Shown piece after piece: positions 10,675 to 29,888 of a stretch of 52,653 bases of DNA. The notes beneath the pieces were generated by a model, which saw nothing but the letters and a program-made list of their open reading frames with translations, had not been told where the DNA came from and did not search any database. Within the stretch, counting starts at the first letter, position 1. Each line of letters starts with the position of its first letter. The stretch comes from a virus. The stretch is from the UHGV virus genome UHGV-0083175; one strand, 5' to 3'. A program made the translations under genes and the position numbers.

Positions 10675-11103
10675 ATGTATTGCCGTGCTGTACCGGTTCT
10701 TGTTTTGATATTAGCCAGTCTGACAACTGGCTGCACAAAAGATGTATCGACAAATAATTATGATGCTTCTCTGTATCACTCAGATAAATTAATAAAGTCG
10801 CAAAATTTGAGCTCATCGGAACGTACCCCTGATGCCAGTGAAGAAATCCGGCTGTATGCCATTCAGGTCAGGAAAGCCATAGAAGAACAGTTAAAGGATG
10901 CGAGTAAGTATTCAGGAAAAGAGTGTTCACTGAGAATGTATATGGCCCCGAATGGTCTTCTGCTACAGGTTAAAAGAGAAAGCGGTGATCCCGATTTATG
11001 TCGTGAAGCGATGAATGCAGTAAAGAATGCTGATATACCATCACCACCGTCTTCAGGAGTATATAAAGCATTTAGAAATGGCGTGCTGGATTTTAAACTC
11101 TGA
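10675..11103 (+). CDS. Lipoprotein carrying a TolA C-terminal (domain III)-like domain
   Basis: Lipobox LTTGC at residues 16-20. The C-terminus ..YAIQVRKAIEEQL.DASKYSGKECSLRMYMAPNGLLLQVKRESGDPDLCREAMNAV...IPSPPS..VYKAFRNGVLDFK parallels recalled E. coli TolA domain III. Confidence 0.85.
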   Translation: MYCRAVPVLVLILASLTTGCTKDVSTNNYDASLYHSDKLIKSQNLSSSERTPDASEEIRLYAIQVRKAIEEQLKDASKYSGKECSLRMYMAPNGLLLQVKRESGDPDLCREAMNAVKNADIPSPPSSGVYKAFRNGVLDFKL

Positions 11104-11238: not shown

Positions 11239-11416
11239 GCATGGTGAATCCCCCTGTGCGGAGGGGCGACTGGTGAACGGTATGATCTCTTTGATGATCG
11301 TAAGCGAGAATACGCGGGTTTGGTGTCACCGGGCTGAACTCACCGGGAGGCACCCGGCACCATGCTCATGGTGATACAGAAATGCGGCTTCAGCCCCTCT
11401 CCGGAGGGGCTTTCTT
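11239..11416 (+). ncRNA. Structured RNA module, copy A (unknown family)
   Basis: Closing helix GCATGGTG/CACCATGC, internal hairpins CCCCCT..AGGGG and CCGGG-aggca-CCCGG, and terminator GCCCCTC-tccg-GAGGGGC followed by Ts. Confidence 0.5.
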
Positions 11417-11422
11417 ATGGAC

Positions 11423-11491
11423 AAAAAAAGCCCGCGCTGGGAGACGCGGGCGGCAAGGAATAAACAATAAAACGTGAAGTAATACTTCAAC
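11423..11491 (-). ncRNA. Candidate sRNA, copy 1
   Basis: Minus-strand promoter TTGCGC-N18-TATTAT (plus coordinates 11527-11498), conserved body ACTTCACGTTTTATTGTTTATTCCTTGCC, and terminator GCCCGCG..CGCGGGC followed by T7. Confidence 0.45.
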
Positions 11492-11570
11492 TGGCGAATA
11501 ATACCCGACAGTAATCACTCTGCGCAATAGCGCGGCCTTTTTCGAATTGCGGGCTGTAGTCTCCCTTCTG

Positions 11571-11735
11571 CCGGGTGGCCTGGTTGCAGATTTCTTCATG
11601 GGGTAGGGTTCGGCAGTTAAAGCAGCGATGGCGCTGGGGCGTCGTGCAACTGGCGTTGAGCTGGATACCGGGCGTTTTGAACAGACTGCGCAGGAAATCA
11701 GGGATGTATTTAGCGGGAGCGGTTTGCAGAAGTAA
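11571..11735 (+). pseudogene. 3' remnant of a second N6-adenine methyltransferase gene
   Basis: Nucleotide-level paralogue of 10040-10195. It reads PGGLVADFFMG*GSAVKAAMALGRRATGVEL.., with an in-frame TAG. Confidence 0.8.
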
Positions 11736-11798
11736 TCTCCCAAAATGCCATTTTTGGAATATACTGGTATTAAGTCTTTTTGCTCAGGTTAATTCAAA

Positions 11799-12524
11799 AT
11801 GGATGTTGCCTGCTCTGTGGTCCTGATTCGCTATCCGATAGATATTTTTCTTGAAAAAGAAAAAGTTTCACTCGATGCCGGAAGTGTTATGCTTGTTGCC
11901 AGAAATATAAGAGGGCTTTTCTGTGCTTATGCCGACAGAGTGAAAATGGCAGATATAAGTAACAGCGTCGTCAATCAGTATCTGGAAAGGGAGTGTGAAC
12001 TGACGGAGTATACACCGACAAAAATGCCTCTTTATTTGATGTCTGATATTTACAATACGGAACTGGCGGAGGCTTTAATAACCCAGCATAGTGAATCCAG
12101 TGATACTTTGAAGGATTTCTCTGTTATAACCGCATTTTCATGTATCTCCTTATTTGCAACAGACAGGCGTCTGCCATTATTTTTGTCCGGTGCTGTAAAT
12201 AATATCAGCTGTAAAGTAAGGGCTATAATTCAGACCGACATATCGGCAGGCTGGATGCTAGGTGTGATTGCATTACAATTGCATATGAGCGAAAGCTTGT
12301 TGAAGCGAAAACTTAAGGATGAAGGTTATAGCTTTAGTCGGTTGTTGCTGGAGGAGCGAATGCGTGTTGCTGTTAATCTTGTATGTTTCCAGCGAGAGTG
12401 TGGACAAGCGATAGCGGAAAAATGTGGTTACTCAAGTAAGTCCTATTTCATTTCTGTATTTCACCAGTATTATGGTGCACCACCTGAGAGCTATGCATAT
12501 TTGCAGAAAGCAGACGTTATCTGA
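11799..12524 (+). CDS. AraC/XylS-family transcriptional regulator (moron)
   Basis: C-terminal double-HTH pattern: W.L..IA..LHMSESLLKRKLKDEGYSFSRLLLEERM..A..L......I..IAEKCGYSSKSYFISVFHQYYG.PP..Y. Confidence 0.85.
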   Translation: MDVACSVVLIRYPIDIFLEKEKVSLDAGSVMLVARNIRGLFCAYADRVKMADISNSVVNQYLERECELTEYTPTKMPLYLMSDIYNTELAEALITQHSESSDTLKDFSVITAFSCISLFATDRRLPLFLSGAVNNISCKVRAIIQTDISAGWMLGVIALQLHMSESLLKRKLKDEGYSFSRLLLEERMRVAVNLVCFQRECGQAIAEKCGYSSKSYFISVFHQYYGAPPESYAYLQKADVI

Positions 12525-12613
12525 TGTTTTTTCATCAGGCATATATTGATTGACTGTATTAGATATAGTCTGAATGTGTTCAGCATAAAAAGTTATAATC
12601 ATTTGGTGTTTGC

Positions 12614-12892
12614 GTGAATATTGATGAGAAAATCAGATGTAGCCAACTGTTACAGCGTATTGAAGCCGTCAATGTGGAACGAACAAAGGTCTTCAGTCGT
12701 CTGACAGTTTTATTTTGTACCCCTGATCGACGTTCAGGTCAGGAGATGGTTCTTCTGGATGTAGATGCACTTCGGAACGTCTGTGAGGAGTTCACCGCGG
12801 CTAATTCGGAGTTACTGAGTCTTGTTCAGGAGTACAACAGAATTGCAGGTAGTAACGGTTTTGATGAAATCAAAATTATATCCCGTGGATAA
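12614..12892 (+). CDS. Hypothetical protein
   Basis: 92-aa ORF (GTG start) downstream of the AraC-type gene, within the same AT-rich block. Confidence 0.45.
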   Translation: MNIDEKIRCSQLLQRIEAVNVERTKVFSRLTVLFCTPDRRSGQEMVLLDVDALRNVCEEFTAANSELLSLVQEYNRIAGSNGFDEIKIISRG

Positions 12893-13210
12893 AACATATC
12901 CTGTATATTTATGTTGTTACATACAGGCGCTTTTAGTATCTGCCGCACGGCAGTTGTACTTTAGAATAAGATGCTTTTGTGACTGGTGGTGTTGTATCTG
13001 GGGTTAGCCAGGAGGCAGGTTCAGAGAGTCCGGTGGTAATTATGTGTATGCAGTGGTTGTTGCTGTACCGTGGGCAAGTTCTGGAACTGGCTTCGTCCAT
13101 TGTAGATGATTGTTAGCTGGATATCAGTTACCTCATGGAAATGTTAAATGACTCACAATTCGGTTGATGGACTATTGTCTGATCGATGGAAGTCTTGTAA
13201 AAACGAGCCA

Positions 13211-13375
13211 GCATAGTGAATCCCCCTGTGCGGAGGGGCGTCTGACATGGTCTCCATAGCGATGGTCACAATACGCAGATTCAGTAGTCAGGCTGAATCT
13301 ACCGGGAGGCACCCGGCACTATGCTGCTTATGGTGTATACATAGCGATCGGCCCCTCTCCGGAGGGGCTTTTTTT
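13211..13375 (+). ncRNA. Structured RNA module, copy B
   Basis: Closing helix GCATAGTG/CACTATGC, a compensatory change relative to copy A. It has the same hairpins and terminator. Confidence 0.5.
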
Positions 13376-13469
13376 GTGCGGGAAAAGGCTGTGTTGTTAA
13401 GTGTTAAATTCCTCACAGTTCAGATGGTTGATGCTTGCCTGTCTGAGGGGGAGTTGTTAAAAAAGTTCT

Positions 13470-13634
13470 GCATGGTGAATCCCCCTGAGCGGAGGGGCAT
13501 ATCAGCGCAGGTGTTTCTACTCTATCCTTTCTGTGCGGGTTCAGGTGCTGATACTGAACTCACCGGGAGGCACCCGGCATCATGCATATGGTTAACAGAC
13601 ACGTAGCGAAGCCCCTCTCCGGAGGGGCTTTTTT
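13470..13634 (+). ncRNA. Structured RNA module, copy C
   Basis: Closing helix GCATGGTG/CATCATGC (one G-U pair), variable hairpin TATCAGC/GCTGATA, same terminator. Confidence 0.5.
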
Positions 13635-13729
13635 ATGCAGGGAAAAGGCTGTGTTGTGAAATGTTAAATTCCTCACAATTCATGAGGTTGATGATTGTCT
13701 GATTGATGAGGAGTTTGTTAAAAAAAACG

Positions 13730-13883
13730 GCATGGTGAATCCCCCTGTGCGGAGGGGTGATATCGTATCATTTCATGTGTGGCCGACTGATATCACGGAC
13801 ATTTGTTCACCGGGAGGCACCCGGCACCTGCAGTATACAGAGATTAGGCATACATCCAGGCTCCTCATCGCAGGAGCCTTTTT
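13730..13883 (+). ncRNA. Structured RNA module, copy D
   Basis: 5' GCATGGTG and 3' CACC-TGC (1-nt gap), variable hairpin GTGATATC/GATATCAC, and a different terminator GGCTCCT..AGGAGCC followed by T5. Confidence 0.45.
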
Positions 13884-13889
13884 ACATGT

Positions 13890-19121: not shown

Positions 19122-19589
19122 ATGAACCGTGTTCTGTGTGTGGTGATTATTGTCCTGCTGGTAGCCTGTGGTGTGCTTAGTCTGGGGCTGAATCATTACT
19201 GCGATAACGCCATCACCTATAAAGCGCAGCGCGATAAAAAAGCCAGAGAGCTGGAGCTGGCAAACGCAACCATTACTGACATGCAGCAGCGCCAGCGTGA
19301 TGTTGCAGCGCTCGATGCCAGATACTCGAGGGAATTAGCCGATGCGAGAGCTGAAAATGAAACTCTGCGTGCTGACGTTGCCGCTGGTCACCGCAGCCTG
19401 CGGATCAACGCCACCTGTCCAGGTCCCGTGCGTGAAGCCACCGGCACCTCCGGTGTGGATAATGCAACCGGGCCCCGACTGGCAGACACCGCTGAACGGG
19501 ATTATTTCATCCTCAGAGAACGGTTGATGACAATGCAGAAGCAGCTGGAAGGGGCGCAGGAATATATCCGCACTCAGTGTATTAACTAG
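19122..19589 (+). CDS. Rz: i-spanin Rz
   Basis: N-terminal TM segment [19 protein letters not shown] and a coiled-coil periplasmic domain. It contains the embedded Rz1. Confidence 0.85.
19342..19527 (+). CDS. Rz1: o-spanin Rz1 (embedded lipoprotein)
   Basis: +1-frame ORF inside Rz with lipobox LVTAAC and a proline-rich mature region. Confidence 0.8.
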
Positions 19590-19612
19590 TATTTTTGTTA
19601 TCCGGAGGATGC

Positions 19613-19837
19613 ATGAAGAAATTACTGGTAACCGTAAAGCCTTTTCAGGGAACAATTCCGTTCCGTATTTTGCAGCGTGGTCGTGTTCTTGTTGAAGGTT
19701 CGTTCAGTGGTAAATGTACGCAATTACACTCCCGGACCTTTCAGGTGAATGCCACGAATGAAGAGCTAACCGTTGAGTGTACGATGAATGCCGCTAAATG
19801 CCGTATGGTATCGGCTGCATTACAGCCAGTGTGTTGA
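19613..19837 (+). CDS. Hypothetical protein
   Basis: The ATG at 19613 follows GGAGG; 74 aa. Confidence 0.45.
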   Translation: MKKLLVTVKPFQGTIPFRILQRGRVLVEGSFSGKCTQLHSRTFQVNATNEELTVECTMNAAKCRMVSAALQPVC

Positions 19838-20175
19838 GCGACCTTATTATCCATGCGCGGTATTGTCGCCGTATTCCCGTATTAACAGAGACCGCAGCCC
19901 GACAGGGAGACTCCTCTGCGCGAGTGTGCGGGGATAATCAAAAACGATACACACCGGGGTTTACCGCGTTAACGGAGCGCGGCGTTGTCCTCTCATGGTC
20001 GCTGGTCCGGTGCGATGGTGGAAGAAACCTGACGATGTGTTACCTCACAAGACCTGTTATGTCATGTGTCTGATTTGTGATTTAAGTCGGATAATTGTCG
20101 TTGCCATTAAGCAGAGGATTGATGGCCGACAGGGTGGCATTGTTAGAATAAGACTTATTCTTATCTGTGCCGGGA

Positions 20176-20508
20176 ATGAAAATGAAAAGAAATCTTCCGT
20201 TAATTATTTTGTTGTCTTCTCTGGTTATGGGCTGTACGCAACATAAAACAGATATGCCCCGACAGTTGGTTAAGGCATTACCACAATATCCGGCCTATGC
20301 AGCGGCAAATTATATAAAGGGACGGGTTGATGTGAAGTTTGATATTGGTGCTGATGGTACTGTCACCCGAATTGAGTTTATCCGTTCAGAGCCGCACCAT
20401 CTGTTTGATGAGCAGGTTGTAAAGGCGATGGCAAAATGGCGATTTGAGAAGGACAGGCCGCGTAAAGGCGTGAAGAAAACGTTTATCTTTAGTCCTTCTG
20501 CACCCTGA
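20176..20508 (+). CDS. Lipoprotein carrying a TonB C-terminal-like domain
   Basis: Lipobox LVMGC. The stretch ..LPQYPAYAAANYIKGRVDVKFDIGADGTVTRIEFIRSEPHHLFDEQVVKAMAKWRFE parallels the recalled TonB_C motif P.YP..A.....G.V.V.F.V...G.V.....S.P...F...A..A...W.F. Confidence 0.8.
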   Translation: MKMKRNLPLIILLSSLVMGCTQHKTDMPRQLVKALPQYPAYAAANYIKGRVDVKFDIGADGTVTRIEFIRSEPHHLFDEQVVKAMAKWRFEKDRPRKGVKKTFIFSPSAP

Positions 20509-20639
20509 TTATTTCATCAGAAATTAATTATCACTCTGTTGTTATTCTGTACATCCCGGCTGGGTAAGTCTTGTTCCGCCGGGTATGAAGATGAAATATT
20601 GTTGGAGGACAGTGGGTACCTGCTCCTGTAACCGAACGT

Positions 20640-20840
20640 TCATTTCTCGTTATTTGTCATGCTGGCCGGACGCAGATGCGTTGCATCTGTTGCCAGCCTT
20701 CTCCTGCAGGCTTCAATAACCCACGCTGAAAAGTTACCGGACCCTTTATGCTCAAGGGCGATGTTGATCTGTTCAATCATGTGATTGGGGAAACGGATAT
20801 TGCGGGTTGTGGTTCTGCGGGTCCGGTTTTTCGATGACAT
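20640..20840 (-). CDS. YlcI/YnfO-family (DUF3950) small RHH-like protein
   Basis: MSSKNRTRRTTTRNIRFPNHMIEQINIALEHKGSGNFSAWVIEACRRRL matches recalled DLP12 YlcI. Confidence 0.8.
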   Translation of the reverse strand: MSSKNRTRRTTTRNIRFPNHMIEQINIALEHKGSGNFSAWVIEACRRRLATDATHLRPASMTNNEK

Positions 20841-20881
20841 ATTTATTTCCTTTACTGATTGCCATATGACGGGGATTTTAC

Positions 20882-21247
20882 ATGGCTGAGCTTCGTACAC
20901 TCCAGAGCAGAATCAAAACACTGAATACCCGACGGGTGAATATTCTGAAGGGTGAACAGCGTCGTGTCAGTGGCAGTGCACGTGTTTCCCTCAAGCGTCA
21001 TATCTGGCTCAGGGATGCCGGGCAGTGCTGTCTCTGTGGTCGTGTGGTTGACCTCTGTGACAGTGAACTCGATCACCGAATTGCACTTCAGTTCGGTGGT
21101 GGTAATGAGGAGACGAATCTCTGGACGCTCTGTACCGAATGCCATCGACAAAAGTCTGCTCGTGAAGCGGCGGGTGGTATGCCGGACCCGACGCTGCCGG
21201 AGGTGTCCGGAGGTAGTGGCAGAGCGGACGACATCATCGGACTGTAA
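20882..21247 (+). CDS. HNH endonuclease (packaging-associated)
   Basis: C.LCG.......ELDH.......G...NL..LC..CH..K pattern, located immediately upstream of cos and terS. Confidence 0.85.
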   Translation: MAELRTLQSRIKTLNTRRVNILKGEQRRVSGSARVSLKRHIWLRDAGQCCLCGRVVDLCDSELDHRIALQFGGGNEETNLWTLCTECHRQKSAREAAGGMPDPTLPEVSGGSGRADDIIGL

Positions 21248-21538: not shown

Positions 21539-22102
21539 GTGCTGACAACGCAAAAACGAAAATTTGCGCTGGCGCTCATGTCCGGGAAAAACAAAACAGC
21601 GTCAGCCATTGCCGCCGGTTATTCGGCGAAGACAGCCAGGGTTAAAGGCTCGCAGCTGGCAAAAGATCCGGAGGTGCTCGCGTTTATAGCCCGTAAGCAG
21701 TGCGAGACGGTAGAGGTGGATGAGGTTCCTGTTTACCGGCAGAAAAAATCAGAGCAGGAGGATAAACCCCGTCGCCGTGAGGCGGCTGCAATACCACAGC
21801 CGGACGAAACAAATCCGGAGATGCCTCTGCCCGTGGTGATATCTCCTGGTATTGAGTATATGGATGACGGTCTTCCCGATCCGGTGAAAGCGATGGGGCG
21901 TCTTCTGGTGGAGAACATTAATACCGACCCCAGGCTGGCGCTGGATGTGGCTTATAAGCTGGCACAGTTCACGCACCACAAAAAAGGGGATGCCGGTAAA
22001 AAATCGGCAAAAGGTGACGCGGCGAAAAAAGCGGCTAACCGTTTTGCGGTGCCACCACCCCCCCGACTGGTGGTGAATAATGATAATGAGGGCAGCGGAT
22101 GA
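21539..22102 (+). CDS. terS: Terminase small subunit (P27 family)
   Basis: N-terminal HTH QKRKFALALMSGKNKTASAIAAGYSAKTARVKGSQLAKDPEV. Its stop overlaps the terL start. Confidence 0.85.
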   Translation: MLTTQKRKFALALMSGKNKTASAIAAGYSAKTARVKGSQLAKDPEVLAFIARKQCETVEVDEVPVYRQKKSEQEDKPRRREAAAIPQPDETNPEMPLPVVISPGIEYMDDGLPDPVKAMGRLLVENINTDPRLALDVAYKLAQFTHHKKGDAGKKSAKGDAAKKAANRFAVPPPPRLVVNNDNEGSG

Positions 22103-22380
22103 TACCTGTGTGGAGCACGGCCTGCCCGGACTGGGCAGAGCGCCTGAAAAAGGGGCTGTCGATTATTCCGGCTCCGATTTACCCGGACCAGGCCGCACAT
22201 GCCCTGGCGATTTTTAAACAACTGCGGATTGTGGATGCACCGGGCAGCCCGACGTTCGGGGAGTCCTGTGCACCGTGGGTGTTTGATCTGGTGGCTGCCC
22301 TGTTTGGCTCCTACGATGCGCAGACCGGTGTACGCCATATAAAGGAAGTGTTCATTCTGATACCGAAAAATAATAGATAA
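22099..22380 (+). pseudogene. terL: Terminase large subunit, 5' fragment (interrupted by the island)
   Basis: The TerL N-terminus ends ..IKEVFILIPKNNR*. The reading frame breaks inside the P-loop at the island junction. Confidence 0.85.
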
Positions 22381-22381
22381 T

Positions 22382-22415
22382 AAAAAAACAAATAAAGTGT
22401 TTATTTGTTTTTTTC
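22382..22415. terminator. AT-rich hairpin terminator at the island left junction
   Basis: AACAAATAAA-gtg-TTTATTTGTT flanked by A- and T-runs. Confidence 0.45.
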
Positions 22416-22543
22416 TACGTTTTATCAAATAGTTATGGTTATCTTTGCTCTATGTTTTTATGTGTTGCTAACGGCAGATTTTAACGCTTTGTTGTTGACA
22501 TGGACTAACCGATGAACCATAAACTTTATCTGTAGGGGCATTT

Positions 22544-23779
22544 ATGCTAATCAAACCGTTAAGCCATGTTGAAGTAAAGAACGCAAAACCAAAGGATAAA
22601 GATTACTCGCTTCATGATGGATTTGGGTTGTTGTTATATGTTTCAAGAAAAGGCTGTAAAACATGGCGTTTCAGGTATCAGCACCCCGACACCAAAAAAA
22701 GACAAACGCTTACCATTGGTCGTTATCCAGATTATTCAATAGCTGAGGCAAGAGAGGAAAGGGATAAAGCAAGGAAATTACTTTCAAGAGGTGTGGATCC
22801 TAATGAGTCTAAGCGCAAGGCAAAATCTGAACGAATTATGCTGAGGTCACAGACCTTTGAAAAAATAACAAATAACTGGTTTGAATTGTATTTAAAGGGA
22901 AGCAGAAGGGAAAATACAGTAAAAACAGTTAGCAGAGTTATTAAAGTTTATATTATTCCTGATTTTGGGGGTTGGACGATTTATGATATACGTGCTGATA
23001 ATGTATTGTCAGTTATTAGAAAATATGACGAAACGCCTGCACAGCAACGAAAAATAGTACAGGTTATGCGTCTTGTTATGGATTATGCCGTGAATGCTGG
23101 AATTGTTCAGTTTAATCCGTTGTCTCGTATTCATAAAGCGCTTCCACCTATGGAAGAGAAAAGCTTTAAGGCGCTGCCCATAGAAAGATTACCCGCTTTT
23201 CTTAATTGGCTTGAGTCAGAAAGTTGTCATCCATCAATAACATATGGTCTTCTTTTTATGATGCTGACAATGACCAGACCTAACGAGGCATTAGGTGCCA
23301 AATGGTCAGAACTGGACGTTGACAGAAAACTATGGACCATTCCAGCAGAGAGGATGAAGGGGAAAAGAGAACACATTATTCCTTTATCTTTACAGGCTGT
23401 TGAAGTGATAATGCGAATGAGAAAAATAAAACAAAGTGAGTATGTTTTTTTTGGTGCTCATTCAGTTGCAAAGGCAATAACGAGAGATGCTATTGTCAGT
23501 AGGGTTAATAAAAGCGAGTTTGCAAAGGAAATGACAGTACACGGATTCAGGTCAATGTGGAGCACATTACTCAATGAAGAGGGATTTAACCCCGATGTTA
23601 TAGAGGCTGCACTTGCACATAAGAGCGGAAATACTGTAAGGGATATTTATAACAGGACGTCATATATTGAACAGCGGGTAATAATGATGCAATGGATAGG
23701 TGATTTTGTCGATTCTGCAAGACGTGGGGTTATTGTTAGGACGCATGGTAAACGCGGTTTAAAATTGGTAAATGAATAA
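22544..23779 (+). CDS. int: Tyrosine integrase (P4-type, N-terminal DUF4102 arm-binding domain)
   Basis: ..KDKDYSLHDGFGLLLYVSRKGCKTWRFRY... N-terminus. The catalytic region has ..HGFRS.. and ..LAH.....VR..Y. Confidence 0.9.
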   Translation: MLIKPLSHVEVKNAKPKDKDYSLHDGFGLLLYVSRKGCKTWRFRYQHPDTKKRQTLTIGRYPDYSIAEAREERDKARKLLSRGVDPNESKRKAKSERIMLRSQTFEKITNNWFELYLKGSRRENTVKTVSRVIKVYIIPDFGGWTIYDIRADNVLSVIRKYDETPAQQRKIVQVMRLVMDYAVNAGIVQFNPLSRIHKALPPMEEKSFKALPIERLPAFLNWLESESCHPSITYGLLFMMLTMTRPNEALGAKWSELDVDRKLWTIPAERMKGKREHIIPLSLQAVEVIMRMRKIKQSEYVFFGAHSVAKAITRDAIVSRVNKSEFAKEMTVHGFRSMWSTLLNEEGFNPDVIEAALAHKSGNTVRDIYNRTSYIEQRVIMMQWIGDFVDSARRGVIVRTHGKRGLKLVNE

Positions 23780-23791
23780 GGTGTACAATAT

Positions 23792-23998
23792 ATGAATGAT
23801 ATAAATAATAGTCAGATTTTGTTGCGTGATGATGTGATGAAAAAATTGCGATACAACAACGCGGCTGCTTTTCATATGTTTTTTAACAGAACGCCGGACT
23901 TTCCAAAGCCCTTCAAGATAGGCCGTCGCAATGCCTGGTATGAAGAGGATGTGCAAAATTGGCTTGATGAACAGCGAAGAAAAGCCCTTGAGGAGTGA
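23792..23998 (+). CDS. alpA: AlpA-family regulator/excisionase
   Basis: 68 aa, located just downstream of int. The pattern ..FPKPFKIGRRNAWYEEDVQNWL is AlpA-like. Confidence 0.75.
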   Translation: MNDINNSQILLRDDVMKKLRYNNAAAFHMFFNRTPDFPKPFKIGRRNAWYEEDVQNWLDEQRRKALEE

Positions 23999-24056
23999 AC
24001 GTAAAAGAACAGGCGTCCTTAAAGGTCGCCTGTTATGTAGTAGTGGAATATTACAA

Positions 24057-24419
24057 TCATGTTTTTTTTGATGCTATGTAAGCAAGAATGCACGGTTCCT
24101 TTGCCAGTTGTGACCCTTTCGATCTGGCTGTTTTCGCACTGTATCCAGCAAGAATAGCGCACTGTGTCTGATTCAGCCCTTTCATCATGTAATCAGCAAA
24201 TTTCTTTTTTTGCTTCGTCAGCTTGTTTGTTTGGTCGTTTTTATCATCGTTTGCGGTAAAAACATTAGATGTGGTCTTAAGCTGATGTTTACAGGCTTCA
24301 ATTACCCACGATGAGAAGTTGGAGTGCGCTTTATCTCTTTCTATGCGTTTTTCAATATCAGCTAATAAGTCAGGCGGGAAGCGGATCCCCTTAAGTATCG
24401 CTTTGCGTGTTTTGTCCAT
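24057..24419 (-). CDS. Fusion of a YlcI-like RHH domain and a TerS-type N-terminal HTH
   Basis: N-terminus ..GIRFPPDLLADIEKRIERDKAHSNFSSWVIEACKHQL (compare 20640-20840). C-terminus KQKKKFADYMMKGLNQTQCAILAGYSAKTARSKGSQLAKEP (compare the terS N-terminus). Confidence 0.7.
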   Translation of the reverse strand: MDKTRKAILKGIRFPPDLLADIEKRIERDKAHSNFSSWVIEACKHQLKTTSNVFTANDDKNDQTNKLTKQKKKFADYMMKGLNQTQCAILAGYSAKTARSKGSQLAKEPCILAYIASKKT

Positions 24420-24439
24420 TCATGGCCCCAAAATAAGTA

Positions 24440-24535
24440 GTGTTAACTTGTTACTATTTAACAGTTTTTGAGGGTGTGTTAAACAAAAAACTGGTTTGTG
24501 TTTAACGAAAATCGCTTCGTGTTAAACACGTTGCC
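24440..24535. promoter_or_regulatory. GTTAAC / TGTTAAACA repeat cluster (operator-like)
   Basis: GTTAAC at 24442, followed by three TGTTAAAC(A)/GTTTAACA copies upstream of the RHH-HTH gene. Confidence 0.45.
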
Positions 24536-24593
24536 TAGTTAGTGGGGACAGATGACGAGTTGATCAAACCTGCCGGATAACAGGCAAAGAAAA

Positions 24594-24620
24594 GGCCACC
24601 TGTCACGGTGGCCCTTCGAC
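24594..24620 (-). terminator. Intrinsic terminator of the leftward regulatory operon
   Basis: Read on the minus strand: GGCCACCG-tgaca-GGTGGCC followed by TTTTCTTT. Confidence 0.5.
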
Positions 24621-24692
24621 ACAAATTTCGCGTTATCCCCAACGCATGAGCATCGCCGACAATGCCACATTTACGGCTGGTGGACAAGGCTA

Positions 24693-24920
24693 TCAGCCAG
24701 GCGGTCGGTTTTTAGTGGCTTTTAACCGCCGTGGGTATTTCTCGACAAAATCTTCAAGGGCAAATTTTTCTGGTGGCATTAAGCGCGGCGCTGGTGGTGG
24801 TATTTTTGTTCTGGTTAGTTCTTCCTCAACTCTGGCGCAGGCTTCTGACTGCCTTTGCCGGATGATTTCATCATCTTGCGTTTGCGTGTCTTGTATTGGT
24901 GATAGTGTGTTGTTGGTCAT
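24693..24920 (-). CDS. Hypothetical protein
   Basis: 75-aa ORF downstream of the RHH gene on the minus strand. Confidence 0.4.
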   Translation of the reverse strand: MTNNTLSPIQDTQTQDDEIIRQRQSEACARVEEELTRTKIPPPAPRLMPPEKFALEDFVEKYPRRLKATKNRPPG

Positions 24921-24977
24921 GATACTGCCCTGTAAAGCAATGCGCCGTAGTACCTCACACCACGGCGCTGATAGTGA

Positions 24978-25157
24978 TTATTCTGATTCTTTGGCCTTGC
25001 GGCGCTGGCGGCGTTTGATCTCGCCTTTTGCTGCCGTAACTAGAAATCCGGCGGTACTTTCGCCAGGTTCTTTAAGTTGCTCAATATCGGTCATTACCTC
25101 ATGCGGGATTCTGACCGTTGTCATTTGTGATTTTGCGTTCTTTGCACCTGTTGCCAT
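24978..25157 (-). CDS. Small RHH (CopG/Arc-like) regulator
   Basis: The ATG at 25157 follows GGAGA. MATGAKNAKSQMTTVRIPHEVMTDIEQLK.. has the RHH beta-strand pattern. The track ORF is over-extended. Confidence 0.6.
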   Translation of the reverse strand: MATGAKNAKSQMTTVRIPHEVMTDIEQLKEPGESTAGFLVTAAKGEIKRRQRRKAKESE

Positions 25158-25177
25158 TTCTGGTTCTCCTGATAATC

Positions 25178-25270
25178 GGTGTATTTCAGTATACGCAAAA
25201 AAAAAGATAAAAAAAGTCTTGCGGTGTATTTCACCTGAATGTAGATTTAAAAATGAAGGTGAAATACACC
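25178..25270. promoter_or_regulatory. Divergent promoter/operator region of the island
   Basis: Perfect 13-bp inverted repeat GGTGTATTTCACC (25223-25235) / GGTGAAATACACC (25258-25270), plus a half-site at 25178-25188. A TTGCGG-N17-TAGATT promoter overlaps it. Confidence 0.5.
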
Positions 25271-25343
25271 TAAAACAACAACGCCCCGCAGTGATGGGAA
25301 CACATACGGGGCGTCTAACCAACAACGTAAACGAGGAGCCGTT

Positions 25344-25541
25344 ATGGTTGCCGTAAATCATATACCACACCTTGTACACACACAAACGGCCTTTGTGTGG
25401 CGTTTTCTGGCACTGAGTGCCGGAGAATCTCAAATCATCCACGTAACCGCCTGGACGGAACGCGAAGCGCGTAACCGTTGCCCGTCCGGTTGTGTTGCTG
25501 TATTTGCCGCCCGTATTCGTCAGGAGGTGCGCCATGATTAA
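25344..25541 (+). CDS. Icd-like (cell division inhibitor family) small protein
   Basis: ..FVWRFLALSAGES..IHVTAWTEREARNRCP.GCVAVFAARIR resembles recalled Icd-like proteins of P4/PICI elements. Confidence 0.5.
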   Translation: MVAVNHIPHLVHTQTAFVWRFLALSAGESQIIHVTAWTEREARNRCPSGCVAVFAARIRQEVRHD

Positions 25542-25746
25542 TCTGTCACTTACTGACCTTAACCGCATTCAGTTTCGTGAGAAATTCACAGGGCAGCTAC
25601 TGGTCAATGTGGATAAAGGTCGCGTGGTGTGTAATTACCACTTACCAGATGAAGCAATTGTCGCCACAAGGGAATCATTACAGGAAATCACAAAACGTGC
25701 CGGAATGATTAACACGAATATTCAGGGGATGCTTTATGCACAATAA
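25534..25746 (+). CDS. Hypothetical protein
   Basis: ATG after GGAGGTG, overlapping the upstream stop; 70 aa. Confidence 0.45.
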   Translation: MINLSLTDLNRIQFREKFTGQLLVNVDKGRVVCNYHLPDEAIVATRESLQEITKRAGMINTNIQGMLYAQ

Positions 25747-25975
25747 AACCACACCGGACGCAGCCGCCGAAGCCATCAAAACGCTGATGCACGCGCTGAT
25801 TGATATTTCTGTTATCGCGGACAGGGCACATAAGCACGCCACCAGCGAAACAGAATATGCCGGTGCTTTCGTTCCTCACTCACTGGCTGTCATGCAATTT
25901 AGTGCTGATACGGCGCTGAATGAGGCCAAAGCTATCCTGATTGCTGATTGTGAAAATGGGGGGGGTTATGCGTGA
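25736..25975 (+). CDS. Hypothetical protein
   Basis: 79-aa ORF in a coupled gene string. Confidence 0.45.
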   Translation: MHNKTTPDAAAEAIKTLMHALIDISVIADRAHKHATSETEYAGAFVPHSLAVMQFSADTALNEAKAILIADCENGGGYA

Positions 25976-26201
25976 TGATCGTTTTAATTCCCTGAAACAG
26001 GAATTTTCCGGCGTTCCTGATGATGCGGCTGATGCGCTTTCGTCAATGCCAGAACTTATTAGAGCGGCTTTTTTCTTACTTTCCACGAGAGAATATAAAT
26101 CAACGGGGCTTGATGTACTGAATATCGCCGCCGATTATGCGGAATATGTGGCAGAGGCGCGTTATAGAAGAAAATTTCCTGAGGATGTAAGCCATGCGTG
26201 A
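25968..26201 (+). CDS. Hypothetical protein
   Basis: The ATG at 25968 overlaps the upstream stop; 77 aa. Confidence 0.45.
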   Translation: MRDDRFNSLKQEFSGVPDDAADALSSMPELIRAAFFLLSTREYKSTGLDVLNIAADYAEYVAEARYRRKFPEDVSHA

Positions 26202-26427
26202 TATTTACCACCAAACAATAGACCGCGCATTTCTTGCACTTTCTCACAGTGAAAACATGATGGAAATATTGCGCATATGGCTTGAAACACTTGGCGACAA
26301 TGAACGCGACAAACAAAAATCAAGAATTGCCACGGCATTAATAACGCTTCTTGAGCCTGTAATAATGGAACTGCAAGAAATAGATCTATTGCACGACAGA
26401 TATAAAGAACAGCACATCGGAGAATAA
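26194..26427 (+). CDS. Hypothetical protein
   Basis: 77-aa ORF in a coupled gene string. Confidence 0.45.
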   Translation: MRDIYHQTIDRAFLALSHSENMMEILRIWLETLGDNERDKQKSRIATALITLLEPVIMELQEIDLLHDRYKEQHIGE

Positions 26428-26432
26428 AAATA

Positions 26433-26732
26433 ATGAAACTTAAATATTCTGGCTTAACTGCCAGTGGCAACACTCACCCTAAATTTACGCGCGGTGATAT
26501 TTACCGCGACCAGTACGGCGGCACGGTAATGATTAAGGGCGTGGCGGGACGGTGCGTAACTTACCGCCGTGAAGGTTACGAATATGATTGCGTGATGCCT
26601 GTTTATCAGTTCCGGCGTGATTTTTCTCTGGTACAGACCGCGCCGCATAACGTGCCCACCAGCAACGCCAGGGCACGGGCAAACATCCAGAAGCTGAAAA
26701 CCATGATTAACGGATTCAGGGGTAAAAAATGA
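26433..26732 (+). CDS. Hypothetical protein
   Basis: 99-aa ORF whose stop overlaps the start of the rep gene. Confidence 0.5.
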   Translation: MKLKYSGLTASGNTHPKFTRGDIYRDQYGGTVMIKGVAGRCVTYRREGYEYDCVMPVYQFRRDFSLVQTAPHNVPTSNARARANIQKLKTMINGFRGKK

Positions 26733-28126
26733 AACTGGCACCGAATGTAAAACTGTTACCGAAAGATAAACACACCGAAGCGGTTATTTTTGCGGGTGAT
26801 AATGCTCACTCATTTGCAGAGCACTACATCATTGCACAGGCCAAAAAAGCAGGCGATCCAGTCCCTCCCGTTTACCTGGGGCGTTATCAGTTAAGCGAAC
26901 TGGATAACTTGCAGATTGTTGATAAAGGTCGGTTCAGGGCGAAAGTGATACGTGCCGGAAATATTGACGAAGTGCAGTTGTTAACCATCGCCACGAAACT
27001 GGCAATCGCAGGAGTCCAGGAAGCGCGCCTGTTTTCTGAAAATTTCGAATTGCTGGAGGAATGGAGCGACCAGCTTACACGGCTTAGGGAGACATGGGAA
27101 CGCGGGGAAAGCCTGAGCCACCAGCGAAAAACAAAGCTACCGATGAGCGTTGGATCTGCCGGATACGACACGCAATTAGATTACGTGGTAAAGGGGATTA
27201 TTCCGGCATCGTCGCTATGCAGCATATACGGGGCGAGCGGTTCATATAAATCGTTCCTTGCGGGTTCGTGGGCGTGTCACGTTTCCACGGGCCGCCAGTG
27301 GGGAGGCCGCAGGGTTGCACATGGTGCAGTTCTCTATGTGGTTGGTGAAGGCGGTATTGGTGTTCCGCGTCGTGTAAAAGCCTGGGAGGTTGTGCACGGT
27401 GAGCAGGTGAAAAATCTGTATCTGGTAAACCGTCCCATCTTTCCGGCTGTCCCGCTTGATGTTGATGAAATGGTTATCGCTGCCCGCCAGGTGGAACGGG
27501 AAACCGGTAAACCTGTACGCATGATTATTCTGGATACGCTGGCGCGTTGCTTTGGCGGCAATGATGAAAATGACTCCCGCGACATGGGGGCATTTATCCG
27601 TGGTTGTGACGAGCTTAAACGGCGCACAGGGGCCACTGTGCTGGTGGTTCACCATTCCGGCAAGGATGAAACAAAGGGGGCGCGTGGTTCCAGTGCATTT
27701 CGTGCTTCGCTGGATGCTGAATACCGGATACGCAGGGAGGACGCAGGAAGCGAAGCGCTGGTTATCTCATGCACCAAAATGAAGGACGCGGAGGAACTCA
27801 AAGAGGCTGCCTATGATTTGCGGGTGGTGGAGCTTTTTACCGACGCTGACGGGGAGTTAATCACGTCGCTGGTGGTGGTGGATAAGTCGCGCCCTCCCGT
27901 TGAACTGGAGCGCATCGAAGAGGCAGGCAACAAGACGGAAAACCATACCGCGCTATGGGGGTGTATCCGTTCACGCACACAGAACGGCGACAAGTGCACG
28001 ATCCCGCTGTTACGTGATGACATGAAAAAACTGGGGTACGAAATAAAGCACTTCCGGCGCTGGCTGGGCAAGCTGGAAAAAGACGGCGTTATCTATGTTG
28101 ACGGCGATGATGTAGGGCCACTGTAA
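26729..28126 (+). CDS. Replication protein, RepA/AAA_25-type (RecA-like) helicase, Pri-Rep-like
   Basis: Walker A-like YGASGSYKSF, Walker B-like RMIILDTLARCFGG.DEND, and ..VLVVHHSGKD..KGARGSSA. Iterons follow immediately. Confidence 0.8.
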   Translation: MKLAPNVKLLPKDKHTEAVIFAGDNAHSFAEHYIIAQAKKAGDPVPPVYLGRYQLSELDNLQIVDKGRFRAKVIRAGNIDEVQLLTIATKLAIAGVQEARLFSENFELLEEWSDQLTRLRETWERGESLSHQRKTKLPMSVGSAGYDTQLDYVVKGIIPASSLCSIYGASGSYKSFLAGSWACHVSTGRQWGGRRVAHGAVLYVVGEGGIGVPRRVKAWEVVHGEQVKNLYLVNRPIFPAVPLDVDEMVIAARQVERETGKPVRMIILDTLARCFGGNDENDSRDMGAFIRGCDELKRRTGATVLVVHHSGKDETKGARGSSAFRASLDAEYRIRREDAGSEALVISCTKMKDAEELKEAAYDLRVVELFTDADGELITSLVVVDKSRPPVELERIEEAGNKTENHTALWGCIRSRTQNGDKCTIPLLRDDMKKLGYEIKHFRRWLGKLEKDGVIYVDGDDVGPL

Positions 28127-28328
28127 AAAGTGGGGGGCAAAAGTGGTGGGCATGGGGAATTTAACAAAATTTAAACACGACCCCCCACTTTTTGACCTGT
28201 ATACATCCCAAAAAGTGGGGAGCAAAAAAATACTTATGAAACAGCATGATAAAAATTACAAATCCCACGCCTTTAACGAGATGGGGAATTGTGAAAAGTG
28301 GGGAGTAAAAGTGGGTATAGGTGGGGAG
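28127..28328. repeat. Island replication origin iterons (AAAGTGGGG repeats)
   Basis: At least 6 copies of AAAGTGG(G/T)GG(A)G in both orientations (28127, 28140, 28181 inverted, 28211, 28294, 28308), flanking an AT-rich spacer at 28224-28262. Confidence 0.6.
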
Positions 28329-28580
28329 ATGACACAAAAACGCAGAGACAGAACACAGCCAAAATATAAAGCGTTAGACATGACAGAGCACGCTTTAAAG
28401 GTGGCAATCAGAACGATAGACCGCCACGCGGGGGAAGGATACGCGAAGGAACATCCCGACCTGATAAGCGCATTCATGACCACAGCGGCGGCAAACTTTG
28501 CCACGCTGACAGAACGGGAGATTGCCGAAGCGGAACAGGTAACAACCATCAACGTTAAAACCGGAGAGTTGGAATCATGA
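28329..28580 (+). CDS. Hypothetical protein
   Basis: The likely start is the ATG at 28329, after the iterons. The track ORF start (28143) would read through the origin. Confidence 0.4.
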   Translation: MTQKRRDRTQPKYKALDMTEHALKVAIRTIDRHAGEGYAKEHPDLISAFMTTAAANFATLTEREIAEAEQVTTINVKTGELES

Positions 28581-28882
28581 GCGAACCAAAATTTGGTGAA
28601 AAACTTTACAAGCACAACGGACGGATCACGATTCTGCAAATAAGCGCAGCTACACCAGGCTGGTGGGTTGAAACAGACGAAGGATCCTCACCCGTGGCAT
28701 CATGGGCGCTTTGTGCGCTTAGTTACCCTGACCGCGATGTGTATCAGGATATTCTGCCTGTGATATCCACTGACAAAGGCATGAAACCCGTAGACATCAA
28801 AAACATGGGTTTTCAGTGCGTAATGCTCACTGAAAAAATGATGGAAGAGATGAAAAAGAACAACGCCGGATCGCTTCACTGA
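28577..28882 (+). CDS. Hypothetical protein
   Basis: 101-aa ORF, coupled to the upstream gene. Confidence 0.5.
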   Translation: MSEPKFGEKLYKHNGRITILQISAATPGWWVETDEGSSPVASWALCALSYPDRDVYQDILPVISTDKGMKPVDIKNMGFQCVMLTEKMMEEMKKNNAGSLH

Positions 28883-28891
28883 GGTGGCAAT

Positions 28892-29290
28892 ATGACAGCA
28901 CAAATTGCAGCTTACGGGCGGCTGGTGGACGACCCGCAGGTAAAACAGACCAGCAAGGGCACACCGATGACGCTGGCGCGTATGGCGGTATCTTTGCCAT
29001 GCAGCCAGGCACAGGACGGACAGGCGACGTTATGGTTATCGGTCATCGCATTTGGCAAACAGGCCGACTTCCTGGCTAAACATCAAAAAGGAGATGTTGC
29101 CAGCGTATCCGGCACGATGCAGGTAAGCCAGTGGACAGGCCAGAACGGCGAAACGCGGCAGGGCTGGCAGGTTATCGCAGACAGCGTAATCAGTGCCCGA
29201 GGCGGGAACAGACGCAAAACCACAGGCACACAGGGTAATCAGCCACCAGCGGGAGGCGATGACCCTTACGGTGATGGTATTCCGTTCTGA
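28892..29290 (+). CDS. ssb: Single-stranded DNA-binding protein
   Basis: OB-fold pattern (..GRLVDDPQVKQTSKGTPMTLARMAV...W..V.AFGKQA..L...KGD...V.G......W), a Gly/Pro-rich tail and an acidic tip DGIPF. Confidence 0.85.
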   Translation: MTAQIAAYGRLVDDPQVKQTSKGTPMTLARMAVSLPCSQAQDGQATLWLSVIAFGKQADFLAKHQKGDVASVSGTMQVSQWTGQNGETRQGWQVIADSVISARGGNRRKTTGTQGNQPPAGGDDPYGDGIPF

Positions 29291-29300
29291 GGGGGTGAGG

Positions 29301-29573
29301 ATGGTACATGACCGCATAGCGGAGGAACTCGAGGCGAAAGGATTTTACCGGAGGGCGGCGGCGCGATGGGGTGAAGTCATGCAGCTGGTGGAGACAGACA
29401 AGGAACGGTATCAGGTTACGATGCGACGGCTGGAATGTTCCAGGAAGGCACAGAAGCCACCGGAGCCGCCGGATAACTTCGGAGACCTGAGAAAGGCAGT
29501 CGATCGCACTTATGCTGAAATGGGTATAGATGGTGCAGGCGATGAAGTATGGCGTAATTACCCAGACAGCTAA
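29301..29573 (+). CDS. PerC/Pch-family transcriptional activator-like protein
   Basis: MVHDRIAEELEAKGFYRRAAARWGEVM.. resembles the recalled PerC family core (LE..G.YRRAA.RW.EV). Confidence 0.6.
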   Translation: MVHDRIAEELEAKGFYRRAAARWGEVMQLVETDKERYQVTMRRLECSRKAQKPPEPPDNFGDLRKAVDRTYAEMGIDGAGDEVWRNYPDS

Positions 29574-29578
29574 GCACA

Positions 29579-29886: not shown

Positions 29887-29888
29887 CA

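Follow-up and report, generated by a model that had tools for sequence, protein, structure and literature searches.

[quoted passage not shown] The question is raised by a gene in UHGV virus genome UHGV-0083175, which was analysed as a single stretch of 52,653 nucleotides (the window). A sequence-only reading of this DNA had described the product as a TonB mimic that could block TonB-dependent phages and group B colicins, and had paired it with a TolA mimic encoded in the same prophage.

The open reading frame list and the sequence place the gene on the + strand at 20182..20508 (108 aa) with its stop codon at 20506-20508, in agreement with the end given before. An in-frame ATG at 20176, formerly taken as the start, would add Met-Lys to the protein. 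The ATG located 6 nt downstream, at 20182, is probably the translation start, since the codon at 20176 is ATA both in clade B (the sister clade of phage 21) and in 14 of 80 near-identical viral contigs of clade A, to which the window belongs, a GGGA Shine-Dalgarno sequence lies 6-7 nt upstream of ATG 20182, and the RefSeq entry WP_000828070.1 ('TonB family protein') begins at this codon. With a GC content of 44%, the gene is poorer in GC than the late genes on either side of it (about 54%).

Read directly from the sequence, positions 20182..20235 (+ strand) encode a lipoprotein signal peptide, MKRNLPLIILLSSLVMG, followed by cysteine. Its layout, MKR-NLPLIILLSSL-VMG-C, shows the charged n-region, hydrophobic core and lipobox of a lipoprotein; the lipobox LVMGC and the peptide LPQYPAYAAANYIKGRVDVKFDIGADGTVTRIEFIRSEPHHLFDEQVVKAMAKWRFE are found exactly as they had been quoted. 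Compared with the lipobox pattern [LVI][ASTVI][GAS]C, the Met at position -2 is unusual. The cysteine that would be lipidated, Cys18, is encoded at 20233-20235 and followed by Thr at +2. A pattern search recovered the lipobox cysteine in 26 of 28 family members, in which the +2 residue is S, T, A or V and never Asp, with C being scored at +2 where the pattern caught an upstream Cys. Lipidation of Cys18 and sorting to the outer membrane are predicted, the latter because Thr occupies the +2 position (E. coli +2 rule). The tether from the lipidated cysteine to the TonB C-terminal domain (TonB_C) comprises about 7-8 residues.

This domain is encoded at 20257..20493 (+ strand), and its residues 26-104 correspond to P153-K231 of E. 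coli TonB. Pfam, a gapless alignment with TonB and the superposition of a model all agree with the initial description of a lipoprotein made of a TonB C-terminal domain. The protein matched Pfam PF03544 (TonB_C) with E=5.5e-15 and 56 bits against a cutoff of 24.6, and TIGR01352 with 56.5 bits against 27.1; TonB_C and TonB_2 were the only families returned by the Pfam search. Residues 153-231 of E. coli TonB, taken from PDB TonB chains, aligned without gaps. An MSA-based AlphaFold (AF2) model reached a pLDDT of 85 overall and above 95 in the TonB_C domain; the final run used 24 sequences and replaced a poor single-sequence run (pLDDT 52). The top Foldseek matches in the PDB were all TonB C-terminal domains (1u07, 2gsk_B, 2grx_C and 8rd6), with rmsd values of 1.0 Å for 2gsk_B (TMt 0.92), 1.1 Å for 2grx_C and 1.3 Å for 1u07, within an overall range of 1.0-1.4 Å and at 37-42% identity over the aligned parts. 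Structure prediction, which had been suggested as a check, thus returned the TonB_C fold, with its helices and three-stranded sheet. A search of the BFVD viral structures gave no match at E<=0.001, the fold being essentially absent from that viral set.

The YP motif claimed for the protein is present as Y36 P37. Together with G59 these residues are the equivalents of Y163, P164 and G186 in E. coli TonB, and among 28 relatives the YP and core glycine positions hold Y in 27, P in 27 and G in 28 sequences. The domain includes the last strand, equivalent to TonB β3, the strand which pairs with TonB boxes. A cysteine scan by Postle identified seven functionally important TonB residues that were proposed to discriminate transporters and colicins (PMC3005593). 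All seven are kept in the phage-borne protein (Y163, F180, G186, F202, W213, Y215 as Phe, and F230), which supports its reading as a TonB mimic, and they are near-invariant across the 28 family members. TonB R166, a residue that we take to touch FhuA in the complex 2GRX, is replaced by Tyr in 25 of the 28 members. Hypervariability across the family marks the segment matching TonB 157-162, the 'Q160 region' turned towards TonB boxes, and for this reason the binding specificity may differ from that of TonB, or the target may be other than the TonB box. Past the equivalent of F230 the tail has 5 residues, compared to 9 in TonB.

As had been stated, the N-terminal anchor and the Pro-rich spacer of TonB are both absent, since 108 residues leave no space for them. 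No His occurs in the N-terminus, MKRNLPLIILLSSLVMGC, which has the form of a lipoprotein signal peptide, whereas functional TonB requires H20 in its N-terminal anchor (PMC3005593). The models of full-length TonB, NF008081-NF008084, scored 60-73 bits, far below their cutoffs of 265-448, and were matched only at model positions of about 152-240. The TonB_C lipoprotein thus shares domain family and fold with E. coli TonB (P02929, C-terminal domain about 150-239) but has a cleavable lipoprotein signal peptide in place of the signal anchor, the His20-type coupling to ExbB/ExbD and the Pro-rich spacer.

The lysis cassette is closed immediately upstream by the Rz i-spanin gene (19125..19589, + strand; Pfam Phage_lysis, E=5e-50) and the Rz1 o-spanin gene embedded in it (19342-19527, + strand; Pfam Rz1, PF06085, E=3e-20). 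With both genes located upstream, the spanin pair is complete without the TonB_C gene, which lies 590 nt past Rz as a low-GC insert with Rz/Rz1 on one side and terminase genes on the other. Rz was found less than 1.5 kb upstream in 67 of 73 viral contigs, the slot after the lysis genes is likewise occupied in phages of E. coli, Klebsiella and Sodalis, and in phage 21 and Perceval the gene adjoins bor. The best explanation for this arrangement is a 'moron', a self-contained accessory gene, of lambdoid prophages. Among 5426 complete E. coli genomes, the clade of the window is present in 415 (~8%) and the 71%-identical clade of phage 21 and Perceval in 1225 (~23%); the gene is common in the prophages of STEC and AIEC strains. 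IMG/VR contains 189 contigs with the gene, of which the best 80 loci are all near-identical clade-A copies. The two clades share 72% nucleotide identity, and dN/dS was about 0.1 (0.10-0.12; 0.12 against the phage 21 copy) with dS saturated, which indicates that the gene is under purifying selection and functional, not decaying. In a lysogen, the transcript of the Perceval copy (71% identical) was 8-fold over the prophage background. Perceval also carries sitABCD, for iron uptake, and a porin as expressed morons.

Sequence comparison assigns the protein to a family of lipoproteins of about 110 aa, which is new here. In Klebsiella, Raoultella, Pantoea and Erwinia, the members are encoded on the chromosome in stable, non-prophage contexts. 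In a tree, the protein forms a clade with other lipoproteins, apart from the C-terminal domains of enterobacterial TonB, indicating that it is neither a phage invention nor a fresh tonB fragment. Databases already label it 'TonB family protein', with the legacy labels 'TonB fragment' and 'partial tonB-like', and they contain several frameshifted or truncated copies. Literature searches on TonB-like prophage proteins, TonB fragments and TonB-like lipoproteins found no functional study.

Conservation across clade-A contigs singled out a candidate promoter/operator at 20141..20165 (+ strand). It consists of an extended -10 element, TGtTAGAAT (20141-20149), an overlapping palindrome, AGAATAAGACTTATTCT (20145-20161), and a 13/19 match to the Fur-box consensus (20147-20165), a score equalled by ~4-6% of background windows. 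The element is invariant in the upstream variants from 80 clade-A viral contigs while the adjoining bases vary; clade B keeps it partly, with the 3' half deleted. Its distance to the ATG is the same as that of the 15-17/19 Fur boxes of the chromosomal relatives. At 13 of 22 non-E. coli loci, a Fur-box match of >=15/19 lay no more than about 50 nt from the start codon, compared with one other match of this quality in about 260 kb. Such strong boxes precede the chromosomal members in Raoultella, Klebsiella, Pantoea and Erwinia as well as one Sodalis prophage copy, which ties the family to iron-starvation physiology and makes a role other than exclusion possible. The Fur box of the E. coli phage copies is degenerate in the clade of the window and deleted in the phage 21 clade. 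The element at 20141..20165 is a candidate for the gene's own promoter and Fur-bound operator; conservation is the sole basis of the promoter proposal, because a generic sigma-70 scan of 19300-21000 found no promoter on the + strand. In the same interval, a single terminator-like site is located upstream of the gene, at 19649-19664, and none downstream, where the hairpin near 20556-20586 lacks a T-tract. An Rfam search returned nothing in or near the gene.

The TolA mimic described as a companion is real: a 142-aa lipoprotein with the lipobox LTTGC and a TolA domain (Pfam PF06519, E=4.6e-22) is encoded at 10675..11103 on the + strand. Similar to the TonB_C lipoprotein, it combines a lipobox and a short linker with the C-terminal domain of a transducer, here TolA domain III, and its gene occupies a moron slot and is low in GC (41%). 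It differs in its domain, in having a slot of its own and in its independent distribution. The slot lies downstream of the Q/tRNA region, where related prophages have Stx genes; the relative L002 carries Stx2 there. In the tail-tip protein J encoded in the window, the last 300 aa match long-tailed Stx phages. Co-occurrence was judged from a joined-segment search and from phage records, among the matches listed. At least 23 E. coli genomes have both genes within a single prophage, yet the two are not physically linked in most genomes and all four combinations of presence and absence occur. All 15 phage records that have the TonB-like gene lack the TolA-like gene, and the sole phage record with the TolA-like gene had no TonB-like gene. 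The proposed 'coordinated envelope gating' by the two proteins is weakened by this independent distribution. A literature search on TolA-like prophage proteins found no functional study, and PADLOC gave no defence-system match for either protein.

The explanation that we favour, with a probability of roughly 0.45, is that a moron-encoded lipoprotein presents a TonB tip at the outer membrane and competes there with TonB. The protein would be exported, lipidated at Cys18 and placed on the periplasmic face of the outer membrane, where the short tether would keep its TonB domain beside the periplasmic rims of TonB-dependent transporters. It would then occupy the TonB boxes of these transporters, or of incoming group B colicins, and do so without delivering energy, because the recognition residues and β3 are kept and the anchor and the coupling to ExbB/ExbD are absent. 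In a lysogen, such a TonB competitor would reduce the irreversible adsorption or entry of TonB-dependent phages of the T1/φ80 type and the entry of colicins B, D, Ia and M; siderophore uptake would suffer to some degree. A decoy that blocks TonB-dependent phages and colicins is plausible. The sequence-only reading had invoked a precedent, and PMC9841981 reports, citing Howard et al. 2001, that TonB-dependent iron import is inhibited when the periplasmic domain of TonB is overexpressed. Like the TonB_C lipoprotein, the fragments of Howard et al. (2001) are uncoupled from the motor and periplasmic, and they serve as a mechanistic model; they are, however, soluble, overexpressed and artificial, whereas the phage protein is the product of a natural, selected gene with a predicted lipid anchor and its own regulation. 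Since the family apparently was once under Fur control, its product would have been made when the transporters are derepressed, and the weakened or deleted Fur box of the E. coli phage copies would fit standing expression in lysogens.

Small lipoproteins are known from other phages; two of them, Cor (φ80/N15/HK022) and Llp (T5), close the TonB-dependent transporter FhuA to superinfecting phages, as has been proposed or shown. Cor and Llp target one receptor, whereas the TonB-box step, at which a TonB-domain decoy would interfere, is shared, so that many transporters could be affected. Pfam detected no sequence or fold relation of Cor or Llp to the TonB_C lipoprotein, which in contrast to them has chromosomal relatives. 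The λ Bor/Iss protein is likewise an outer-membrane lipoprotein encoded by a moron of the lysis-to-cos region and expressed in lysogens, but its family is unrelated, its gene lies on the opposite strand, and its function is serum resistance.

The chromosomal relatives bear on a different account, in which the protein is a non-inhibitory envelope factor of iron starvation, that is, a Fur-regulated accessory of TonB-dependent uptake which phages carry as a fitness gene like sitABCD. It might, for example, shield or hold TonB boxes that are exposed, arrange the transporters, or tether them to peptidoglycan. The strong Fur boxes, including that of the Sodalis prophage copy, the stable chromosomal contexts and the co-carriage of sitABCD and a porin by Perceval all agree with such a role. 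Moreover, the co-induction with iron uptake that is to be expected of the Fur-box relatives is odd for a pure inhibitor, and a helper or modulator fits equally well. Against this, a TonB domain without a motor has no obvious route to promote energy-dependent transport, the only experimental precedent cited for free TonB domains (PMC9841981) is inhibition, and the Fur box is mostly or wholly lost in the E. coli phage copies. We consider this account unlikely.

A trap for TonB itself would likewise lower TonB-dependent entry. The aromatic residues F202, W213, Y215 and F230, which cross-link TonB dimers in vivo, are kept by the family, but PMC3005593 argues against an occurrence in vivo of the dimers seen in crystals, and we regard such a trap as quite improbable. 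Still less probable is a lipoprotein which, in the manner of Bor/Iss, would serve host interaction or virulence through serum or complement resistance or adhesion and have no TonB function. Its location in the bor region, next to bor itself in phage 21 and Perceval, and its frequency in STEC and AIEC prophages would suit this role; the protein has no sequence or fold relation to Bor, its domain would face the periplasm if Lol sorting is as usual, and relatives with Fur boxes are found in the plant-associated genera Pantoea and Erwinia.

Two further readings follow existing annotations and have hardly any chance of being correct. The PHROG label 'Rz-like spanin' (phrog_1267, E=1.9e-42) would make the protein a lysis accessory or spanin, in line with a lipoprotein gene so close to Rz, but this identity was rejected, given the complete Rz/Rz1 pair upstream, a globular TonB_C domain in place of a short Pro-rich o-spanin, chromosomal relatives with no lysis genes nearby and a homologue expressed in the lysogenic state; the label looks like annotation transfer by position. 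A dead remnant of a captured tonB 3' end, as suggested by the legacy labels and the frameshifted or truncated database copies, was rejected as well, because tonB has no counterpart to the signal peptide and lipobox of this protein, the two clades, 72% identical in nucleotides, give a dN/dS of about 0.1, the tree places the protein in a separate lipoprotein clade and a homologue is transcribed in a lysogen.

A gene carried by ~8% plus ~23% of the complete E. coli genomes, and found among others in prophages of STEC and AIEC strains, has no published functional test that we could find. Should the TonB_C lipoprotein prove to compete with TonB, a pathway known both as a drug target and as a determinant of virulence would have a natural inhibitor. 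Exclusion would then be broad in spectrum, at the step of energy coupling and not at a single receptor, which would matter for phage therapy and for the use of colicins or microcins against E. coli. If it does not inhibit TonB, the role of a motor-less TonB tip at the outer membrane is the question that the family poses. A wider and more tentative idea, which we hold to be somewhat unlikely, is that the Enterobacterales possess a hitherto undescribed class of outer-membrane-anchored 'transducer decoys', which under Fur control would gate the energy-coupling step common to outer-membrane import, and that lambdoid phages captured and de-repressed them, giving lysogens a broad tolerance towards TonB-dependent phages, colicins and microcins. 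If this were true, one small protein would shield many receptors, unlike Cor and Llp. The chromosomal relatives with their Fur boxes, in turn, suggest that the iron-starvation response of Klebsiella, Raoultella, Pantoea and Erwinia includes a member not recognised so far.

The open reading frame that ends at position 20508 on the plus strand encodes the peptide described in the sequence-only reading, and its LVMGC lipobox matches exactly. It contains two in-frame ATG codons, at 20176 and 20182, of which the earlier reading had taken the first. We favour ATG 20182, a correction of 6 nt that gives a protein of 108 aa (20182-20508), because the codon at 20176 is ATA in the sister clade of phage 21 and Perceval (clade B) and in 14 of 80 near-identical IMG/VR contigs, because a GGGA/AGGA Shine-Dalgarno sequence lies 6-7 nt 5' of ATG 20182, and because RefSeq entry WP_000828070.1 uses this start. 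Residue numbers refer to the 108-aa form; the earlier numbering was higher by two. The N-terminus, MKRNLPLIILLSSLVMG followed by Cys, reads as a lipoprotein signal peptide. Since the +2 residue is Thr, the sorting rule of E. coli predicts that the lipidated protein is carried by the Lol system to the outer membrane. Between the Cys and P26, where the alignment with TonB begins, lie only 7 residues.

The assignment to the TonB C-terminal domain was confirmed by profile, motif and fold. The protein scored 56 bits with Pfam TonB_C (E = 5.5e-15; gathering score 24.6) and 56.5 bits with TIGR01352 (tonB_Cterm; cutoff 27.1), whereas the full-length TonB equivalog models yielded 60-73 bits against cutoffs of 265-448, the match being restricted to the last ~80 model positions. 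In a phmmer search against PDB sequences, residues 26-104 aligned without gaps to the 79 residues P153-K231 of E. coli TonB. A single-sequence AlphaFold model was poor (pLDDT 52), whereas a family alignment of 24 sequences raised the pLDDT to 85 and to >95 across the domain. The best PDB matches of this model were all TonB C-terminal domains: 2gsk_B, TonB bound to BtuB (rmsd 1.0 Å, TMt 0.92), 2grx_C, TonB bound to FhuA (rmsd 1.1 Å), 1u07 and 8rd6; TolA domain III ranked far lower (E ~0.1-1). As noted before, the TonB anchor and the Pro-rich spacer are absent. The protein cannot be a working TonB because the signal anchor, the His20-type residue and the Pro-rich rod are all missing; it is best described as a TonB tip on a short tether, predicted to sit at the outer membrane.

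Postle and colleagues scanned TonB residues 150-239 by Cys substitution and found Y163, F180, G186, F202, W213, Y215 and F230 to be functionally important; the seven were proposed as TonB's means to discriminate transporters and colicins, and the authors noted that several, although conserved within the enterics, show poor conservation overall (PMC3005593). The TonB_C lipoprotein possesses all seven (Y36, F53, G59, F75, W86, F88 and F103, with F88 a Tyr-to-Phe change relative to Y215), and they are invariant or conservatively replaced across 28 family members. In the last strand, equivalent to TonB β3, the alternation of hydrophobic residues is retained; when TonB is bound to FhuA, β3 pairs with the TonB box by β-augmentation (PMC11658791). 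The family departs from TonB at R166, replaced by Tyr in 25 of 28 members, in the equivalent of residues 157-162 (the 'Q160 region'), which is its most variable part, and in the tail beyond the F230 equivalent, with 5 residues in the TonB_C lipoprotein against 9 in TonB. At the Q160 position the window's protein has Leu. Q160L is a classical tonB suppressor of TonB-box mutations (PMC11658791); we draw no meaning from this Leu because family members differ at this position.

With the recognition residues and the β3 edge retained and the link to ExbB/ExbD missing, the outer-membrane-tied domain should be capable of occupying TonB boxes without transducing energy. An overexpressed periplasmic TonB domain inhibits TonB-dependent iron import, according to the account of Howard et al. 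2001 in PMC9841981. A lysogen would gain tolerance to TonB-dependent phages, such as T1, whose irreversible adsorption requires TonB and energy (PMC11658791), and to group B colicins, which have TonB boxes of their own (PMC11658791); the price would be the loss of part of its siderophore uptake. We give this decoy mechanism, which the sequence-only reading had already proposed in part, a tentative probability of about 0.45, and regard that earlier interpretation as partly supported.

Profile searches recovered lipoproteins of the same architecture (~104-133 aa) from Klebsiella, Raoultella, Salmonella (one record), Pantoea, Erwinia, Sodalis and Pseudescherichia. Together with the phage proteins they formed one clade in a neighbour-joining tree of the domain, apart from the enterobacterial TonB C-terminal domains, which indicates that the phage gene is not a recent fragment of host tonB. 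In Raoultella, Klebsiella and Pantoea the gene stands singly in an ordinary stretch of chromosome, either beside the lac operon and a DUF1440 gene or surrounded by metabolic genes, with no lysis or packaging genes nearby. The DUF1440 protein of the Raoultella locus (L003, 8731-9294) is 61% identical to one of Klebsiella phage ST13-OXA48phi12.4 (L010, 2277-2903), a phage that encodes a TonB_C lipoprotein as well, a hint that the neighbourhood has been exchanged with phages.

When scored against the 19-bp Fur-box consensus, 13 of 22 loci of relatives had a match of at least 15/19, in some up to 17/19, located 16-50 nt 5' of the start codon; the copy in a Sodalis prophage reached 17/19. The sole other site of at least 15/19 in ~260 kb of loci was a Fur-box pair (16/19) in the Sodalis sp. 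RH21 prophage (L022, 7665-7690), ~1.3 kb 3' of its TonB_C gene and directly 5' of the small terminase (DUF1441) gene. In the window, TGTTAGAATAAGACTTATTCTTATC (20141-20165) was invariant among the upstream variants recovered from 80 contigs of the window's own clade (clade A), while neighbouring positions vary. It holds an extended -10-like TGtTAGAAT and a 17-nt palindrome and is a candidate promoter and operator, although a generic promoter scan around the gene returned no site on the plus strand. On the minus strand, a near-consensus sigma-70 site (TTCACA-16-TATAAT, 11/12; 20309-20336) runs antisense within the gene and may be due to chance. The window's palindrome is placed like the Fur boxes of the relatives and fits the consensus at 13/19, a score attained by ~4-6% of background windows; clade B has lost the 3' half of the element and retains no Fur-like site. 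We infer that the family belongs, or once belonged, to the iron-starvation response and that Fur control was weakened or lost in the E. coli phage copies. Such a weakening or loss fits the standing expression of the Perceval copy ('TonB fragment', LF82_160), whose transcription in E. coli LF82 grown in LB was 8-fold over the prophage background; the same prophage expresses an NmpC-type porin and sitABCD (PMC9928086). The expression data located thus concern clade B.

The Fur boxes of the chromosomal relatives and the presence of sitABCD in Perceval speak for a non-inhibitory role in envelope physiology under iron limitation, but a TonB tip without a motor has no evident means of aiding transport, and we consider such a role unlikely. 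Less likely still, the lipoprotein would trap TonB itself by heterodimerisation, a different target with a similar phenotype.

The window is a lambdoid, Stx-phage-like E. coli prophage, in which the TonB_C gene lies 590 nt 3' of a complete spanin pair, Rz (19125-19589, plus strand; Pfam E = 5e-50) and Rz1 (19342-19527, plus strand; E = 3e-20), and is followed by a YlcI/DUF3950 gene, an HNH endonuclease gene and terminase genes. Its GC content is 44%, against ~54% in the flanking late genes. Near-identical E. coli prophages carry the homologue in the same slot between lysis cassette and packaging genes, which is also occupied in ST13-OXA48phi12.4 and a Sodalis prophage; Rz was found within 1.5 kb upstream in 67 of the 73 IMG/VR contigs with sufficient flank. 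In phage 21 and Perceval the gene adjoins bor, directly 5' of cosQ. A Bor-like role in host interaction is improbable; Bor, Cor and Llp are not homologous to the TonB_C lipoprotein. The protein matches PHROG 1267 (phrog_1267; E = 2e-42), labelled 'Rz-like spanin', whose members examined were TonB_C lipoproteins 3' of complete Rz/Rz1 pairs. It is no spanin: the label appears to be wrong, a transfer by position, because the Rz/Rz1 pair is complete and the fold globular, and these same facts make a role in lysis very improbable.

Clade A (at least 90% nucleotide identity) was present in 415 of 5426 complete E. coli genomes, always on the chromosome and annotated 'TonB family protein', and clade B (phage 21, Perceval and ev017; 71% identical) in 1225 of 5426; relatives are encoded on 189 IMG/VR contigs. 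Between the clades, nucleotide identity was 72%, dS ~1.5 (saturated) and dN/dS 0.12, or 0.10 over the domain, which means that purifying selection on the gene is strong. Frameshifts occur in some copies from cryptic prophages, but the dN/dS values and a tree clade separate from TonB make a dead fragment very hard to sustain.

The 'TolA mimic' reported earlier does exist, as a 142-aa lipoprotein (10675-11103, plus strand; lipobox LTTGC, RefSeq 'tolA') with a TolA C-terminal domain (Pfam E = 4.6e-22). Its gene, with a GC content of 41%, occupies the site of the Stx genes in related prophages, and ~108 complete E. coli genomes carry it at ≥95% identity, with ~770 others at 80-90%. The architectural parallel between the two lipoproteins is striking and lends mild support to a decoy logic. 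The two genes are nevertheless not coupled, which weakens the proposed coordination of the pair. None of 15 phage records with the TonB-like gene carried the TolA-like gene, and mEp460_ev081, the one sequenced phage with the latter, is not among them. A 9.8-kb segment across both genes was recovered over its full length in at least 23 of the best 40 E. coli matches; the matches listed also include genomes with the TolA-like gene only, the TonB-like gene only or neither. The place of the TolA-like gene is taken by a TerB gene in E2863 and by Stx2 in OkiPb01697. Given the disjoint phage records and the mixed presence and absence in E. coli, we regard the two as morons from one prophage pool that assort independently of each other. 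Between the TolA-like gene and a NanS-type esterase gene lie four copies of the STnc100 sRNA family (11210-13889; 119-172 bits), amid which stands an AraC-family regulator ORF (11799-12524); a sok antitoxin RNA was located at 4801-4975.

Elsewhere in the window, an element of ~9.6 kb (22380-31975) splits the terminase large-subunit gene into an N-terminal part (ORF 22099-22380) and a C-terminal part (31975-33333, TerL_nuclease); in related E. coli prophages terL is uninterrupted at this site. The element encodes a tyrosine integrase (22544-23779), DUF4222, a 465-aa AAA_25 protein, SSB, two Terminase_2-like ORFs and a Phage_capsid-like protein, and looks like a phage satellite, of the capsid-forming PICI-like kind, within the packaging gene of a potential helper. 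The tail module contains a full-length general porin gene (45058-46212; Porin_1, E = 6e-144); Perceval likewise has an expressed porin moron, of the NmpC type (PMC9928086).

The existence of the gene and its similarity to TonB are already on record, as 'Partial tonB-like membrane protein encoded within prophage CP-933N', 'TonB C-terminal domain protein' (phage 21) and 'TonB fragment' (Perceval). In the annotations and literature searched, of incomplete coverage, we found no lipoprotein or outer-membrane reading, no family with chromosomal Fur-box members and no functional test; earlier work on any of these may exist elsewhere. The TonB_C lipoprotein shares its domain with TonB and is set apart from it by anchor, spacer and equivalog scores; it may act in the manner of Cor or Llp, although at another step. 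It is real, widespread and under selection in prophages, and we would place it among the envelope lipoproteins of phages that alter receptor function, in this case built from a known domain.
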